Assembly: GCA_050950765.1 (NCBI GenBank)
Contig: JBMNIF010000002.1
Location: 704,001 to 768,000 of the forward strand
DNA length: 64,000 nucleotides
Direction: 5' to 3'
Origin: Bdellovibrionota bacterium
GTDB taxonomy: Bacteria; Bdellovibrionota_C; UBA2361; JAAYZI01
Each line of letters starts with the position of its first letter. The first letter of the stretch is position 1. This document shows positions 12,716 to 19,108 of this stretch, piece by piece. The position numbers were made by a program, and so were the translations under genes. The notes under the pieces were generated by a model. It did not search any database and was not told the DNA's origin. It worked only from the letters and a program-made list of their open reading frames with translations.

Positions 12716-15172
12716 ATGTTGAAAAAGATCTTTGTAGTGTTAGTTATCCTCGGAGTGTTGGGAAGTGTTGTGCTCGGAATCGGTCTTGTTTGGGGGTATC
12801 ACTATTTTACGAGAGACCTGCCGAAGTTTACCAGTATGGAAGATTATAAACCTGCTGCTGCTTCCTTAATGTATTCGAATGACGGCACCTTAGTTGGTGA
12901 GTTTTATCTACCATCTGAAAGACGGTATCCTGTACCGCTTTCTGAAATCCCATTATTTGTTAGACAAGCTTTTCTTGGAGCTGAAGACGCTTCTTTCTAT
13001 AAACATCCAGGCATTGATCCCGTTAGTATTTTACGTGCTTTTATTAAAAACGTTAAAACAGGTTCTTCAAAGCAGGGGGGAAGTACAATTACACAACAGG
13101 TCGTGAAAAACCTTCTTTTAACTCGTGAGAAAAGTTTAGAAAGAAAGATTAAGGAGGCGATTTTAGCTTATAGAATTGAACACCGCTTAAGCAAAGATCA
13201 GATCTTGGAGATCTACTTAAATCAGATCACCTTTGGACATAACACCTTTGGTGTAAAAGCTGCTGCGAAAGTTTACTTTCGAAAAGAGTTAAATGAATTA
13301 ACTTTAGCAGAAGCTGCTATCTTAGCCGGATTGCCAAAGGCTCCTTCAAAATACTCTCCACTTAGAAATTTTGCTGCTGCTAAGAGAAGGCAGAAGTATG
13401 TTTTAGGTCAGATGCTTAAAGCCGGATTTGTTACTGATCCGAAAGAGATAGAAGATGCTTATAAGCAGGAGTTGAAGGTTTATTCAGATTCGAAGAGTCG
13501 CTTAATGCGGGCGCCGTATTACATTGATGCTATTCAAAAAGTTTTTGCAGAAGAGTGGAAGGAGCTTGATCTGGAGCGGGATGGGTTAAAGGTTTATACG
13601 GCATTAGATCTAGATGCGTATGATTCCTCTGTGCGCGCTATGCAGAGAGGGCTTAAAGAAGTTGATAAGAGGCGTGGCTGGCGTGGTCCTCTAGAATATC
13701 TTTCTGAAGATGCAGAAGCTACCTTTGCTAAAAAATATGCGAGTCGCATTCCTACTGTATTAAAGCAGGATACGGTTTATCCCGCTTTAGTTGTCTCTGC
13801 TGCAAATAAAAACGGCAGATTACACCTTAAGCTTGGTACAGTTAATGGTGTTGTTGATATTAAGAAAGCCACTTGGGCGAGGGTTATGATCGATAAAAAC
13901 GATCGCACAAAGGGTATTAGACCTGAAAACTCTTTACGTGCTGGAGATGTGATAGAGGTTTCATTTCTAGCAGATGACTTAAAAAAATATTACGATAATA
14001 AAAATCCGACGGCGTTATTAGAAGCAGCTCTTGATCAAACGCCTGATATTGAAGGCGCTTTGGTGGCTTTAGATCCGCATAGTGGCAAGGTTGTAACGGT
14101 AGTTGGTGGGTATGATTATGATTATCAACGTAGCGTTTTTAATCGAGCCATTCAGGCACATCGGCAACCTGGTTCTGTTTTTAAACCGATCGTATATTTT
14201 ACTGCGATTGATCGTCACGGCTATACTCCTGCTACAATAGTTTATGATACTCCTAAAACTTTTCAGATTGGGGATCAGGTTTGGACACCTGGAAATTATG
14301 AAAAGAACTTCCTCGGACCCATTACATTACGAACTGCTTTGCAAAAATCGAGGAACCTTGTCTCTGCTGATATCGTTTACAAAATTGGGGTTGATGATGT
14401 GATTAGAACGGCTAAACAGTTGGGGATTACCAGTCCGATCGGTCGTAATTTATCAATCTCTTTAGGGAGTAGTGAAGTTTCTGTTCTTGAACTAACACGT
14501 GCCTACGGTGTTTTTGCTGCTGGTGGAGTGCTTTTCCCAAGTGTGTTTGTAACGCGTATTGAAGATAGAAACGGCAAAGTTATCTTTGATTATAATGCCG
14601 AGCGCTTAAAGTTGGCAAAACGTGTTATCGATGAAAATAGCGCTTTTATTATGGCGCATATGATGAAGGGTGTCGTTGAAAACGGTACGGGTTACCGTGT
14701 TAAAGCTTTGGGGCGTCCGACAGCGGGAAAGACAGGAACTACTAACCATTTTATGGATGCTTGGTTTGTCGGGTATACTCCTGATTGGGCTTGTGGAGTT
14801 TGGGCAGGATTTGATGAAAAGAAAACGATTAAAGCAGGGGAGACGGGTGGACGTGTTTCAGCACCGATCTGGTTGTACTTTATGACGGACTTTTTGGCAA
14901 AACAGGATGCTTTGGCTTATGAAAAGTTAGTGGAGGAGTCAAAACAGGAAGCTGCTCGTTTAGGAGTGGAGTATGATAAGCCGGAGCCTTTAAAGCCGCG
15001 TGATTTTGATGTACCGGACGGAGTAGATCCGTATTGGGTTACAAAGGATGGCGAATTAACAACTCCTTCTACTCCAGGGGCTATCCTTGAGTATTTTAGA
15101 AAAGATGCACCACCACAGCGACGTGAACAGAAGCAGCAAGAGGCTGATTATTGGAACTCTCCGGAATTGTAA
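12716..15172 (+). CDS. mrcA: Penicillin-binding protein 1A (class A PBP)
   Basis: Transglycosylase motifs AEDASFYKH, GGSTITQQ and RKIKE. Transpeptidase motifs SVFK, SRN and KTG. Confidence 0.92.
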   Translation: MLKKIFVVLVILGVLGSVVLGIGLVWGYHYFTRDLPKFTSMEDYKPAAASLMYSNDGTLVGEFYLPSERRYPVPLSEIPLFVRQAFLGAEDASFYKHPGIDPVSILRAFIKNVKTGSSKQGGSTITQQVVKNLLLTREKSLERKIKEAILAYRIEHRLSKDQILEIYLNQITFGHNTFGVKAAAKVYFRKELNELTLAEAAILAGLPKAPSKYSPLRNFAAAKRRQKYVLGQMLKAGFVTDPKEIEDAYKQELKVYSDSKSRLMRAPYYIDAIQKVFAEEWKELDLERDGLKVYTALDLDAYDSSVRAMQRGLKEVDKRRGWRGPLEYLSEDAEATFAKKYASRIPTVLKQDTVYPALVVSAANKNGRLHLKLGTVNGVVDIKKATWARVMIDKNDRTKGIRPENSLRAGDVIEVSFLADDLKKYYDNKNPTALLEAALDQTPDIEGALVALDPHSGKVVTVVGGYDYDYQRSVFNRAIQAHRQPGSVFKPIVYFTAIDRHGYTPATIVYDTPKTFQIGDQVWTPGNYEKNFLGPITLRTALQKSRNLVSADIVYKIGVDDVIRTAKQLGITSPIGRNLSISLGSSEVSVLELTRAYGVFAAGGVLFPSVFVTRIEDRNGKVIFDYNAERLKLAKRVIDENSAFIMAHMMKGVVENGTGYRVKALGRPTAGKTGTTNHFMDAWFVGYTPDWACGVWAGFDEKKTIKAGETGGRVSAPIWLYFMTDFLAKQDALAYEKLVEESKQEAARLGVEYDKPEPLKPRDFDVPDGVDPYWVTKDGELTTPSTPGAILEYFRKDAPPQRREQKQQEADYWNSPEL

Positions 15173-15196
15173 GAGCCTCTTCTTTTATAAAGGGTT

Positions 15197-15320
15197 GAGG
15201 TAGTGATTTTAAGTAGTGATCTAAAAAAAGGGTAAAGGCTTGAAATACTGACTTTAAGTAGTATTTTGAGAAAGGGTAAAGGTTTGAGGTAATGACTTTA
15301 AGTAGTGATCTGGAAAAAAG
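15197..15320 (+). repeat. Degenerate 44-45 bp tandem triplication overlapping the gatC RBS and start
   Basis: GAGGTA(A/G)TGA(C/T)TTTAAGTAGTGATCT..AAAAAAG-like units start at 15197, 15242 and 15286. Confidence 0.8.
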
Positions 15321-15582
15321 CGCACGTTCGGCACGACTAGGTGTTAATGAAGCGGAACTGAAGGCATTGAAAGAGGATGTTGCTAAGATCCTTGAATACG
15401 TTAAAGAGCTTGAAGAGTACGACCTCTCTGAAGTAGAGCCGCTTTATTATGTGCATGAACAGTGTAATGTTTTACGTGAAGATGTTGCCGCTACTCCGCT
15501 CTCGAGAGAGGATGTTTTAAAAAATGCCCCTGATACAGACACCGTTTATTTTCGTGTGCCATTAATTATGGAACAGAAGTAA
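15292..15582 (+). CDS. gatC: Asp-tRNA(Asn)/Glu-tRNA(Gln) amidotransferase subunit C
   Basis: ARL...ILEYV..L....VEP, NVLRED, NAP and FRVP motifs. First gene of gatCAB. Confidence 0.9.
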   Translation: MTLSSDLEKSARSARLGVNEAELKALKEDVAKILEYVKELEEYDLSEVEPLYYVHEQCNVLREDVAATPLSREDVLKNAPDTDTVYFRVPLIMEQK

Positions 15583-15587
15583 GTGCT

Positions 15588-17042
15588 ATGCTGAAACTTA
15601 CGCAGTTAACATTAAAACAGTTACGTAACGGCTTAGATAAAAGAGAGTTTTCTGCAAAAGATCTTATTCAAGTAACGCTAGCTGCGATCTCTGAGAAGAG
15701 TGATTTAAATGCGTTTATTACCGTTTGTGATGATGAGGCTTTAGCTGCAGCAGCAGAGGCTGATAGAAAAATTAAAAGGGGAGAGTCTACTCCGTTACTT
15801 GGAATTCCTGTGGGGGTAGAAGATCGGATTATGACTAAAGGTATCAGAACTACCTGCGGTAGTAAGTTACTACGATCTTTTATCCCTCCTTATGATGCTA
15901 CGGTGGTGCGGAGGCTTTTGGAGGCGGGTGCCATAATAATAGGTAAGAGTAATTTAGATGAATTCTCAATGGGGTCTTCTGGAGAAAACAGTGCTTTCGG
16001 TGTTGTAAAAAATCCGTGGAATAAAAGTTGTGTAGCGGGAGGAAGTAGTGGTGGCGCTGCAGTAGCAGCACAACTTGTGCCTGCGGTAGTAGCTACTGAT
16101 ACGGGAGGGGGGCTTAGGCAAGCGGCGGCGTTTTGTGGAGTGTACGGTTTGAGACCGACTTACGGTAGAATTAGTCGTTATGGTGTTGCAGCTTTTGCCT
16201 CGTCATTAGATCAGGTCGGTGTTTTATCAAAAAGAGTAGAAGATTTAGGAATAATAACTACCTTAATAGCGGGTTATGATAGCCGTGATGCTACATCTAT
16301 GGATGTAAAAGTTCCTGAGTTCTCACCTCCCTTTGATTGTGGTTTAGACGGCGTTACTATCGGTGTGCCGCAGGAATATTTTTCTTCTCTTGTGGAGAGT
16401 GAAGTTTTAGAAAAAGTTAAAGTTGCGATCAATCGTTTTGAAGAGTTGGGCGCAAAGGTTGTTTATTTAAAATTAGAACATACTACATCTGCTCTTTCTG
16501 CATATTACGTGATCTCTTCCGCAGAAGGTGCTTCAAACCTAAGTCGTTTTGATGGAGTGCGTTATGGGGAGCGTGTAGCGGGATCTGATTTAGAAGAGAT
16601 GTATTTGAAAACTCGTTCTGAAGGTTTTGGATCGGAAGTTAAACGGAGGATCTTATTTGGGACTTATGTTTTATCTAAAGAGTGTCGCTCGCGTTATTAT
16701 TTACAAGCGCAGAAGATGCGACGTTTAGTGTTAGATGATTTTAAAAAAGCTTTTACTCAGTGTGATCTCCTTATTACGCCTGTTACTCCGAGTGGTGTTT
16801 TTAAAATAGGTCAAAAAACATCAGATCCTTTAAGTATGTATCTGAATGATGCTTTTACTGCGCCTGTAAGTTTGGCAGGTTTACCGGCTTTAGGTATTCC
16901 GTGTGGAGTTGATAGTGCAAAGCTACCTATTGGGATGCAGTTGATCGCAGATTATTGGTGTGAAGAGTTGTTGCTTAAGGTAGCAGCTACTTATCAGAAG
17001 GTAATGGATGTGTGGGGAGGTGGAGGTAAAGGTACTAAATAA
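15588..17042 (+). CDS. gatA: Amidotransferase subunit A with a substituted catalytic triad
   Basis: Amidase signature GGSSGG, SNLSRFDGVRYG and EGFGSEVKRRI. It has GVEDR in place of the canonical KDN and DTGGG in place of DTGGS. Confidence 0.92.
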   Translation: MLKLTQLTLKQLRNGLDKREFSAKDLIQVTLAAISEKSDLNAFITVCDDEALAAAAEADRKIKRGESTPLLGIPVGVEDRIMTKGIRTTCGSKLLRSFIPPYDATVVRRLLEAGAIIIGKSNLDEFSMGSSGENSAFGVVKNPWNKSCVAGGSSGGAAVAAQLVPAVVATDTGGGLRQAAAFCGVYGLRPTYGRISRYGVAAFASSLDQVGVLSKRVEDLGIITTLIAGYDSRDATSMDVKVPEFSPPFDCGLDGVTIGVPQEYFSSLVESEVLEKVKVAINRFEELGAKVVYLKLEHTTSALSAYYVISSAEGASNLSRFDGVRYGERVAGSDLEEMYLKTRSEGFGSEVKRRILFGTYVLSKECRSRYYLQAQKMRRLVLDDFKKAFTQCDLLITPVTPSGVFKIGQKTSDPLSMYLNDAFTAPVSLAGLPALGIPCGVDSAKLPIGMQLIADYWCEELLLKVAATYQKVMDVWGGGGKGTK

Positions 17043-17125
17043 AAAAGTATTGTTATTATGGCGGCTACTTTATTAGAAGATAGTGTGGTGCTAAAGGAGG
17101 CAAAAAATTTGGGTAGTGACTGTAA

Positions 17126-18553
17126 ATGGAATATGAAACAGTTATAGGTTTAGAGGTTCATATACAACTTTTAACGCAAAGTAAGGCTTTTAGTGCAGCT
17201 GCAGCGAGTTTTTGTATAAAACCGAATACGGAGGTTGATGAAGCTTCGTTAGGGTTAGCGGGGGCGCTCCCTGTTATAAACTCTAAGGTGTTACGTTATG
17301 CTATTATGTTGGGACTTGCTACGAAGTGTAGTATTAGAGAGGTGAGTCGTTTTGCTAGGAAACACTACTTTTATCCGGACCTCCCGAAGGGTTATCAGAT
17401 CTCGCAATTTGAGGAGCCTATCTGTGAAAATGGAGATCTTGTAATTAGATATAATGGAGAGGAGCGGGCGATCGGCATTCGTCGTATTCATATAGAGGAG
17501 GATGCTGGTAAGAATATTCATGATAAGGAGGGGGGAGTTTCACTCCTTGATTTTAATCGTGTTGGAGTACCACTCTTGGAGGTTGTTTCAGAACCTGACC
17601 TCTCAACCCCTGCAGAAGCTGCTGAATATTTAAGAACGCTTAGGCAGCTAGTGCGTTATCTTGCTATCAGTGACGGCAATATGGAGGAGGGGAGTTTACG
17701 GTGTGATGCCAATATCTCTCTTCGTCCTAAAGGTGAAAAAAAATTCGGAGTAAGAACCGAGATAAAAAACGTTAATTCATTCCGTTTTGTTGAAAAGGCT
17801 TTGGAGTATGAAGTTTTAAGGCAGAGAGGTATCCTTGAAAAGGGTGGTGTTGTAAAGCAGGAGACACGTTGGTTTGATAGTGTCACCTCTAAAACTTATC
17901 CGTTACGGAGTAAGGAGGAGGCTGCTGATTATCGTTATATGATAGACCCTGATCTACCACCATTAAAGGTTTCAGAAGAGTTTATTTCTCAAGTCCTTGC
18001 TGAATTACCACAACTGCCGCAGGAGTATCTGGAGTTATTAACTAAAGAGCACGGCTTAAGTGAGTATGATGCCGCTTTACTTACGAGTGAGAAGGGGATC
18101 GTTCGTTATTATCAAGATGTTGTGGCAAGTTGTCATAATCCGAAAGTAGCTTGTAACTGGATTACGGGAGAGCTTTTTGCGTTACTTAAGAAAAACGGTT
18201 TGGAGATAGAGGGTTCTCCTATCTCTGCAGCGCACTTAGGAGAGTTAATCTTATTAGTGGAGAGGGGGGAGATTAGTGGAAAAACGGCTAAGTTTGTTTT
18301 TGAAGAGATGGCGCAAAGTGGAGAATCTCCAGAAAGTATCGTTACAAAAAAAGGTTTGCGGCAGATCACTAACACACTTGAACTGCAAGAGATCGTGCAG
18401 GGAGTTTTAGAGGAGAATCCTCGTCAATGGGCAGAGTATAGAGCAGGTAGTGAGAAGCTTCTTACGTTTTTTATTGGACTTGTTTTGCGTGCCTGTAAAG
18501 GGCGTGCCAATCCAGAGGTGGTGAAAAAAATGTTGCAAGATTTGGCTAAATAA
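17126..18553 (+). CDS. gatB: Amidotransferase subunit B
   Basis: IGLEVH, RKHYFYPDLPKGYQISQ, HIEEDAGK, EGSLRCDANIS and RSKEEAADYRY motifs. Confidence 0.96.
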   Translation: MEYETVIGLEVHIQLLTQSKAFSAAAASFCIKPNTEVDEASLGLAGALPVINSKVLRYAIMLGLATKCSIREVSRFARKHYFYPDLPKGYQISQFEEPICENGDLVIRYNGEERAIGIRRIHIEEDAGKNIHDKEGGVSLLDFNRVGVPLLEVVSEPDLSTPAEAAEYLRTLRQLVRYLAISDGNMEEGSLRCDANISLRPKGEKKFGVRTEIKNVNSFRFVEKALEYEVLRQRGILEKGGVVKQETRWFDSVTSKTYPLRSKEEAADYRYMIDPDLPPLKVSEEFISQVLAELPQLPQEYLELLTKEHGLSEYDAALLTSEKGIVRYYQDVVASCHNPKVACNWITGELFALLKKNGLEIEGSPISAAHLGELILLVERGEISGKTAKFVFEEMAQSGESPESIVTKKGLRQITNTLELQEIVQGVLEENPRQWAEYRAGSEKLLTFFIGLVLRACKGRANPEVVKKMLQDLAK

Positions 18554-18790
18554 ACACGTATCTTCTATTATTTCACGTTGAGAAAAACGCTTCCAGACTT
18601 GTTTTTAGTAGATTAAATAGGTAGATACGTCTTAGGAAAAGAGAGTTTTTACTCAAACTTACGAGCTTTTTGGAGTTTTTAGCTAAAAGCTTTTAAAAAC
18701 TGCCTTAACTTGGAAGTAGGAAAAAGGAGTTTTACTCCTCTTATTATTCTTTAAGAAAGCCTGTCTCTATGGGGGAGGTGGGTAGATAGC

Positions 18791-19108
18791 TTGGAAGAGC
18801 CTTACACGATGCCGCTTGATGTTGTGGAAATAACCGCTGTTGATGATGAAACTTCTGTTATATGTTTAGAGTTACCACCGTCTAAGGTGGTTATCTTACA
18901 AGGGGCTTTTGAGCTATTGGAGGGGATCGGCATATTAAGGACTCTCGATACTGAGAGAGCTTTAATCTGTGTGATTACCACACCGAGTCTTGTGCGGGAG
19001 TGCGTGGATGTGCTTAATGCGTTACAAGAGGCGGTGTTATGGCGCGTTGCAGAGGTGCCGCCAGATGTAACATTTCTAGGTGATTTTGAGAAGGATTGTT
19101 ATGATTAA
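18791..19108 (+). CDS. DUF4911-like small protein
   Basis: FELLEGIGILRTLD motif. TTG start after GGAGGT; an alternative ATG lies at 18809. Confidence 0.55.
   Translation: MEEPYTMPLDVVEITAVDDETSVICLELPPSKVVILQGAFELLEGIGILRTLDTERALICVITTPSLVRECVDVLNALQEAVLWRVAEVPPDVTFLGDFEKDCYD

Follow-up and report, generated by a model that had tools for sequence, protein, structure and literature searches.

The 64,000-nucleotide stretch analyzed here (hereafter, the window; positions 704,001 to 768,000 of the forward strand of contig JBMNIF010000002.1, Bdellovibrionota bacterium assembly GCA_050950765.1) contains a gatC-gatA-gatB operon for the tRNA amidotransferase GatCAB, in which GatA is missing two of its three catalytic residues. 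Judged by these residues, the GatA of this operon can no longer hydrolyze glutamine: its Ser-cisSer-Lys triad lacks both the Lys and the Ser that acts as nucleophile. The source genome also encodes GlnRS, AsnRS, and AsnA, and its GatA and GatB evolve about 2–4 times faster than in relatives, yet all three frames of the operon are open. The operon looks like a pathway midway through retirement. With confidence that is about evenly balanced, we propose that GatCAB has been demoted under weakened selection and that whatever amidation it still performs has to draw on free ammonia.

Catalytic residues of GatA

The three genes form a compact operon on the plus strand, with gatA encoded between gatC and gatB, and each product scores above its curated NCBIfam cut-off and has the expected Pfam domains (Table 1). 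HMMER alignments pair GatA end to end with the solved GatA chains 4wj3_A (E = 8e-142), 3h0l_A, and 2df4_A, and GatB (E = 1e-159) aligns over its full length with solved GatB chains, those shown being 3h0l_B, 3al0_B, and 4wj3_B. One amidase-family gene, gatA itself, and one GatB gene are present in the source genome (G000), which comprises 2.64 Mb in 5 contigs and is 94% complete; absences elsewhere in this genome are therefore unproven.

GatA enzymes operate with a Ser-cisSer-Lys triad whose nucleophile is Ser178 in S. aureus numbering, according to PMC2330236. In the protein studied here, Glu78 aligns under the Lys of the "hKD / vKD / iKD" segments of GatA in 4wj3, 3h0l, and 2df4, Gly175 aligns under the Ser of "dtggSirq" in the same structures, and a gap of two residues follows the cis-Ser motif GGSSGG. 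The VKRRI and MYLND motifs are present. Within the order, the four changes (K78E, the deletion S156-, S175G, and P179A) each fall at a column that is invariant in 34 of the 34 other GatA sequences (34 other genomes; 29/29 inspected by eye). Since the triad Lys and Ser are replaced and both the loop and the RQP motif are altered, glutamine-dependent activity of this GatCAB is not expected. An earlier note on this stretch had reported Glu for Lys at codon 78, Gly for Ser at codon 175, a segment two residues short after GGSSGG, and an intact gatA frame with VKRRI and MYLND retained. The translation of the open reading frame and the alignment to solved GatA chains confirm both substitutions, the shortening appears in the solved-chain and same-order alignments alike, and the intact frame and the two retained motifs stand as described. 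The comparison with close relatives that the note had called for finds canonical residues in all 34 and changes private to G000. As a caution for annotation, the label "GatA" assigned by family score does not mean glutaminase activity.

The changes consist of substitutions and an in-frame loss of 6 nucleotides, with no frameshifts. Five GatA protein variants drawn from NCBI, JGI, ENA, and Logan assemblies (P0001, P0002, P0121, P0122, and P0123; 97.7–100% identical) all have the Glu, the short loop, the Gly, and the Ala. Logan contigs agree in three other runs, which belong to three studies: that of run X15 (15795–16162) has 0 differences and covers both codons 78 and 175 unchanged, that of run X9 (15683–16712) has 2 differences (16610 and 16656) with both codons unchanged, and that of run X18 (15909–16389) has 0 differences and spans codon 175 and the deletion. 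A contig of run X17 (15553–16296) has 1 difference, whose position within the contig is unlisted. That the changes stem from faulty sequencing or assembly, or from a mutation private to one strain, finds no support beyond the G-run at 16103–16112 being error-prone in principle; this reading can be given practically no credence and was ruled out, as the codons are identical across five variants from four sources and the contigs of three further runs, and no frameshift is present; the earlier argument from clustered changes against a single sequencing error is thereby upheld.

Variation among strains leaves the frames intact. There are 16 polymorphic residues among the five GatA variants and 9 among seven GatC variants, all of the latter full-length, and the only two GatB variants, too few to set against GatA, differ at K239E. 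No truncated or frameshifted sequence occurs among these 5 GatA, 2 GatB, and 7 GatC sequences, and the marks of a pseudogene (frameshift, premature stop, truncation) are absent from the window's frames as well as from all listed variants. The locus was found in 12 runs of 8 studies (runs not marked as possible sources), each with at least 62% of the sampled words. Without exception, these runs come from anaerobic digesters, bioreactors, landfills, or wastewater, in line with the ammonium-rich habitat that the earlier note had thought would fit. No RNA data set was among the sequencing runs listed for the locus.

Table 1. Coordinates of the operon genes, the altered GatA sites, and the tandem repeat within the window.
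Feature	Position	Strand	Description
gatC	15292..15582	+	96 amino acids; TIGR00135 77.6 bits (cut-off 47.1); PF02686 75.1 bits
gatA	15588..17042	+	484 amino acids; full-length amidase-signature protein without two of three triad residues; TIGR00132 557.8 bits (cut-off 481.1); PF01425 447 bits
gatB	17126..18553	+	475 amino acids; NF004014 643 bits (cut-off 414); PF02934 and PF02637; recognizable motifs kept
GatA codon 78	15819..15821	+	GAA (Glu) where the catalytic Lys is expected; Lys in 34/34 relatives
GatA codons 151–156	16038..16055	+	GGSSGG, cis-Ser motif kept; next two residues (S-A in all relatives) missing after 16055
GatA codon 175	16110..16112	+	GGG (Gly) where the nucleophilic Ser is expected; Ser in 34/34 relatives
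GatA codon 179	16122..16124	+	Ala where the Pro of the RQP motif is expected
Three-copy tandem repeat	15188..15318	+	unit 44–45 nucleotides; repeat search, family D1; identity 100/74/88%, spacing 45 and 44

Redundancy of the pathway and rates of evolution

The source genome encodes a full GlnRS (753 bits, cut-off 426) and a full AsnRS (609 bits, cut-off 343), both free of stops, and an AsnA (384 bits, cut-off 293; G000:C3:22438-23379, outside the window), likewise free of stops; the search for AsnB returned nothing that passed the cut-off. With GlnRS, AsnRS, and AsnA all present, the gatCAB route is largely dispensable here. Among 41 genomes (G000 and 40 relatives), GlnRS occurs in 9, AsnRS in 37, GatA in 38, and GatB in 38, and AsnA occurs in G000 alone; this uniqueness suggests that AsnA may have been acquired horizontally. 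Five further genomes combine GlnRS with gatCAB (G001, G005, G016, G030, and G039), all with canonical GatA. The three genomes in which no GatA or GatB was matched are exactly the members of family f8 (G008, G026, and G037): GlnRS is present in all three, and the searches returned no GatA, GatB, AsnA, or AsnB match in any. The genomes of this family are small (1.5–1.9 Mb). Family f8 members are probably asparagine auxotrophs that have completed the loss of the indirect pathway.

The earlier note had held, as an outcome that would refute its reading, that GlnRS together with AsnRS would make the operon a decaying redundant copy, and had proposed a search for these two enzymes and for a second gatA. 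The redundancy is real, both synthetases being intact and AsnA adding to them; a plain decaying copy does not fit frames that are all open, and no second gatA accompanies the single amidase-family gene. A general move away from glutamine was considered as well and rejected, as G000 encodes glutamine synthetase along with three glutamine amidotransferase proteins of class I.

The AspRS of the source genome is of particular relevance to the supply of Asp-tRNA(Asn). A rule that reportedly goes back to Bernard et al. in the J Bacteriol of 2006 holds that a His at position 31 of AspRS (P. aeruginosa numbering) marks a non-discriminating enzyme and a Leu there a discriminating one. The anticodon-binding domain of G000 AspRS has Leu39, within RKRDLGG, at what we take to be the position of P. 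aeruginosa H31. Consistent with the rule, PDB alignments show Leu at this site in the Asp-only enzyme of T. thermophilus and His in the Asp/Asn enzymes of mycobacteria. Among the 34 members of the order with this region, 29 have His and five have Leu (G000, G002, G008, G011, and G026). Both gatCAB-less genomes with AspRS data (G008 and G026) have Leu, and all five other genomes with GlnRS and gatCAB have His. G002 and G011 have no GlnRS match, so GatCAB would still be usable there for glutamine. G000 is predicted to be the sole genome among the six with GlnRS and gatCAB that has no supply of Asp-tRNA(Asn). GluRS has Arg at the position of T. thermophilus R358, but the Borrelia enzyme also has Arg, and this marker cannot tell the type. 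The single tRNA(Asn) and the two tRNA(Gln) of G000 carry U1-A72, and its tRNA-Asp and tRNA-Glu carry G1-C72.

GatA and GatB stand out by their rates. The end branch of G000 is 0.78 in the GatA tree (median 0.27; rank 1/35) and 0.71 in the GatB tree (median 0.19; rank 1/34, the longest of the order), compared with 0.28 for AsnRS (median 0.18; rank 9/34); AspRS of G000 ranks 15/30 (median end branch 0.35), and its GlnRS has mid-range identity among 6 sequences. At columns that are at least 90% conserved, G000 departs 25 times in GatA (median 3) and 19 times in GatB (median 6.5), the latter the most of 34 genomes, and only 5 times in AsnRS (median 5) and 10 times in AspRS (median 4.5). The earlier statement that the GatB motifs are intact holds for the motifs visible in alignments, these 19 departures notwithstanding. 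Two of the changed GatB sites lie in the PG.LP and DYRYFP motifs, which are kept in three solved GatB and in relatives: residue 45 is Ala in place of the Pro of PG.LP (PG to AG), and residues 272–273 are Met-Ile in place of the Phe-Pro of DYRYFP (FP to MI).

The excess divergence amounts to about 10 identity points in GatA and in GatB alike. When approximately 10% of additional amino-acid difference was simulated under neutrality, gatCAB stayed free of stops in only 0.25% of 2000 trials, indels being ignored. That the frames are open despite this excess indicates that selection on the operon has been weakened but has not ceased. Strain differences were compared as well: among the 40 of 70 differences listed, the synonymous to non-synonymous counts, which are small, are 22/1 in the adjacent pbp1A, 4/4 in gatA, and 0/2 in gatB (Fisher p = 0.0012).

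Other triad-less GatA and known GatCAB systems

The 20 loci that came out of a metagenome scan are at most 51% identical. One of them, L119 (2453–5623), comprises gatC, gatA, and gatB in a complete operon; its GatA (527 bits) has Gln for the triad Lys, GGCGC for GGSSGG, the same loop shortened by 2–3 residues, Gly for the nucleophilic Ser, and RQA. Its relatives P0125, P0128, P0139, and P0142, labelled in their sources as Desulfotomaculum, Desulforamulus, and Pelotomaculum, show partial or full triad loss. The states in these Desulfotomaculia-like relatives are graded: the Ser alone is replaced by Ala, the Lys alone is replaced by Glu, Lys to Thr is combined with Ser to Ala, or Lys to Gln is combined with Ser to Gly and a loop 3 residues shorter. 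In the tree, GatA of G000 lies inside its own order (SH-aLRT, the Shimodaira–Hasegawa-like approximate likelihood ratio test, 96) beside G005 and apart from L119, L133, and L136; this placement forces at least two changes, and triad loss thus arose at least twice.

Further amidase-like sequences came up as well. L133 (7905–9536), L136 (1346–2794), and L137 are GatA-like, with Ala or Asp for Lys, a short loop, and RQA; L133 (458 bits) has no adjacent gatC or gatB, L136 (355 bits) follows a weak gatC-like gene, and both score below the GatA cut-off. A scan of a genome collection with the back-translated QAAAFCGV pattern matched 101 stretches. Among the 80 examined, the motif lies in a frame of at least 150 amino acids in 35, only one of which (L173) is amidase-like; the remaining matches are not and were taken as chance. 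L173, from a metagenome-assembled genome labelled Enterobacterales, is an amidase-family gene whose product shares 28% identity with the GatA studied here; its triad region is likewise degenerate (PIALSDE, GGRGG, and DLAGELRQAAAFCGV). A full-text literature search, whose reach excludes most subscription journals, found no published account of a GatA that lacks the triad in nature.

Compared with the canonical GatCAB of P. aeruginosa (4WJ3), A. aeolicus (3H0L), and S. aureus (2DF4/3IP4), the operon in the window has the same gene order, all three families above cut-off, the cis-Ser motif, VKRRI, MYLND, and the GatB 3-10 turn and tail motif. It differs in E78, G175, the loop shorter by 2 residues, the change of RQP to RQA, and the 25 GatA and 19 GatB departures described above. 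L119 and its Desulfotomaculia-like relatives P0125 and P0139 share with G000 a triad-less GatA of separate origin.

The combination of AsnRS, GlnRS, and GatCAB has been described before. In Alperstein et al. 2014 (PMC4206432), it is given for 67 of 547 genera, with AsnA alone in 2 of these, and the retention of GatCAB beside Asn synthetases is called "maybe vestigial". According to the same paper, Bdellovibrio bacteriovorus and Legionella pneumophila, a related kind of organism, likewise have AsnRS, GlnRS, GatCAB, and one AspRS, and the U1-A72 pair on tRNA(Asn) of G000 resembles their system. However, their GatCAB is intact, their AspRS was shown to be non-discriminating, and they carry out tRNA-dependent Asn synthesis, whereas G000 has AsnA, an AspRS with Leu at the His/Leu determinant, and a GatA that appears catalytically dead. 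A second comparison is offered by yeast GatFAB, for which, in PMC4027206, NH4Cl replaces the glutaminase step in vitro, showing that a GatB-type transamidase accepts free ammonia when the glutaminase is impaired. That was a laboratory condition with the triad intact, unlike the natural loss fixed in the species studied here. Nevertheless, the free-ammonia chemistry of yeast GatFAB is what any residual activity in G000 would need.

Interpretation of the operon

The observations can be combined into the following scenario. tRNA(Gln) and tRNA(Asn) would be charged without an intermediate step by GlnRS and AsnRS, AsnA, which none of the searched relatives was found to have, would make free asparagine from ammonia, and AspRS would be in the Leu state that marks enzymes by which tRNA(Asn) is not, or no longer, mischarged. 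Because the main jobs of GatCAB would have been lost, selection on the whole complex would have weakened, and the glutaminase pocket, having become useless, may have decayed first. Because selection did not vanish, as the three open frames suggest, the complex is probably kept for a minor role, such as low-flux back-up or clean-up by amidation of the few remaining Asp-tRNA(Asn) or Glu-tRNA(Gln). Such a residual role could run only on free ammonia reaching GatB, which the habitat would supply. We infer weakened selection as the cause of the pattern, and the residual ammonia-driven activity, if any, in the same way.

Several results weigh against this scenario. Six of the 10 listed strain differences in gatA and gatB are non-synonymous, a small count that is not distinct from neutrality (p = 0.48; among the same 40 of 70 differences). 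The changes in GatA are unevenly placed: 7 of 22 conserved columns are changed in residues 148–182 versus 18 of 157 elsewhere (p = 0.018); residues 81–120, 321–360, and 401–440 together contain 48 conserved columns, all of them unchanged. This is not what simple relaxation predicts, and a selected scaffold fits it too. GatB keeps catalytic-looking motifs, the 3-10 turn ("gnmeegslrcd", aligned gap-free), and a Lys/Arg-rich motif in its tail ("ckgranp"); the turn and the basic tail motif have been tied to tRNA recognition (PMC2811023). The tRNA(Asn) and both tRNA(Gln) retain U1-A72. The acceleration was measured against three control proteins (AsnRS, AspRS, and GlnRS), a small number. Finally, discrimination by the G000 AspRS is a prediction from a sequence marker, the His/Leu rule.

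A broader proposal would take this operon as a natural ammonia-dependent tRNA amidotransferase. According to it, GatCAB in ammonium-rich anaerobic habitats has repeatedly and independently dropped its glutaminase chemistry, GatA has been kept as a remodeled scaffold and ammonia port for GatB, and the G000 complex still takes free ammonia to amidate mischarged tRNA. Shortening of the same loop and replacement of the same Lys, Ser, and Pro are seen both in the G000 lineage and in Desulfotomaculia-like bacteria. We regard this proposal as tentative and would lean against it.

Somewhat less probable still, and in our judgment unlikely, is the case of G000 taken by itself as an adaptive and fully working ammonia-dependent GatCAB, in which GatA is a selected scaffold, tunnel, or entry port with a pocket remodeled to admit ammonia, and the route still supplies Asn-tRNA or Gln-tRNA. 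Frames that are open in all variants over a long branch, changes concentrated at the pocket with other GatA segments untouched, and the retention of the glutamine-binding-type motifs VKRRI and MYLND, of the GatB motifs, and of U1-A72 in the tRNAs are all compatible with it. So are the digester, bioreactor, landfill, and wastewater habitats of the 12 runs, the independent loss with the same loop shortened in the L119 operon and its relatives, the in vitro transamidation with NH4Cl documented in PMC4027206, and the presence of an ammonia-dependent AsnA rather than AsnB. On the other hand, GlnRS, AsnRS, and AsnA make such a route unnecessary, AspRS has the Leu of the discriminating state, and glutamine appears to be in normal use. 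Moreover, GatB is the fastest-evolving of 34, its 19 conserved-column departures include PG to AG and FP to MI, and the listed differences in gatA and gatB include a high share of protein-changing ones, unlike those in pbp1A. Indeed, an acceleration of GatB at least as strong as that of GatA is not predicted by a pure model of GatA as a scaffold for an essential GatB. The earlier suggestion of an ammonia-dependent GatCAB with GatA as a scaffold therefore survives in part: the residue loss, the habitat, and the need for free ammonia in any transamidation agree with it, but the presence of GlnRS, AsnRS, and AsnA, the Leu AspRS, and the accelerated GatB do not.

The operon might instead be a functionless relic due for the deletion that family f8 has already undergone, with frames that are open merely because too little time has passed since the loss. 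Full redundancy through GlnRS, AsnRS, and AsnA, the lack of a gatCAB match in three of three f8 genomes with GlnRS, and the protein-changing share of the listed gatA and gatB differences, which cannot be distinguished from neutral, would all be expected of a relic. The polymorphism of the GatA and GatC variants and the tandem duplication of the 5' end of gatC, with a copy number that varies among strains, would fit as well. However, a divergence of this size rarely passes without stops in the neutral simulation, in which indels were not even counted, none of the 14 variants of the three proteins is truncated or frameshifted, and three stretches of GatA have no conserved column changed. We consider a relic improbable.

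Least favored among the biological explanations is a new non-catalytic role, in which a dead GatA would act with GatB and GatC as a binding protein, for example as a sensor of glutamine or asparagine, or within a transamidosome-like complex as a holder of tRNA or AspRS. GatA has lost catalytic motifs but retains those of the substrate-binding type, the acceleration of both subunits could reflect adaptation, and triad-less GatA recurs in other lineages. Yet there is no positive evidence for such a role: the gatCAB locus shows neither an added domain nor a partner gene nor a regulatory RNA (Rfam gave no match in 14900–18900 at E up to 0.1), and redundancy explains the pattern more simply. It appears highly improbable.

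If GatCAB has indeed been demoted, G000 bears on a question raised in PMC4206432, namely why many bacteria keep a GatCAB beside AsnRS and GlnRS and whether it is functional or vestigial there. G000 is a natural intermediate for this question, and the redundancy of its genome would explain the triad loss. The sister genus G001 (His AspRS, canonical GatA), G000 (AsnA, Leu AspRS, dead GatA), and family f8 (no gatCAB match) form a series along which one can test in what order the steps in the retirement of the indirect pathway took place. Should the complex still run on free ammonia, it would represent a naturally occurring amidotransferase that has dropped the glutaminase part, and studies of the ammonia tunnel would gain a useful scaffold.

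Some features of the surrounding DNA may be added. Promoter-like and terminator-like sites at the locus do not exceed those in shuffled sequence. In the tandem repeat at the 5' end of gatC (Table 1), the third copy contains the ribosome-binding site, the ATG start, and the first codons of this gene, and copies 1 and 2 are degenerate duplicates, of which copy 1 would give a 10-codon frame from GTG. The X9 and X15 contigs have joints that go back 130 and 44 nucleotides there, indicating that the repeat copy number varies among strains. The same two contigs contain a tandem duplication of a 74-nucleotide stretch (17032–17105) that takes in the 3' end of gatA together with the spacer between gatA and gatB. 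Around this duplication, divergence reaches about 3.8% (16 differences over some 400 nucleotides), compared with 0–5 differences in the adjoining gatB, and the divergent patch looks like a recombination mosaic.

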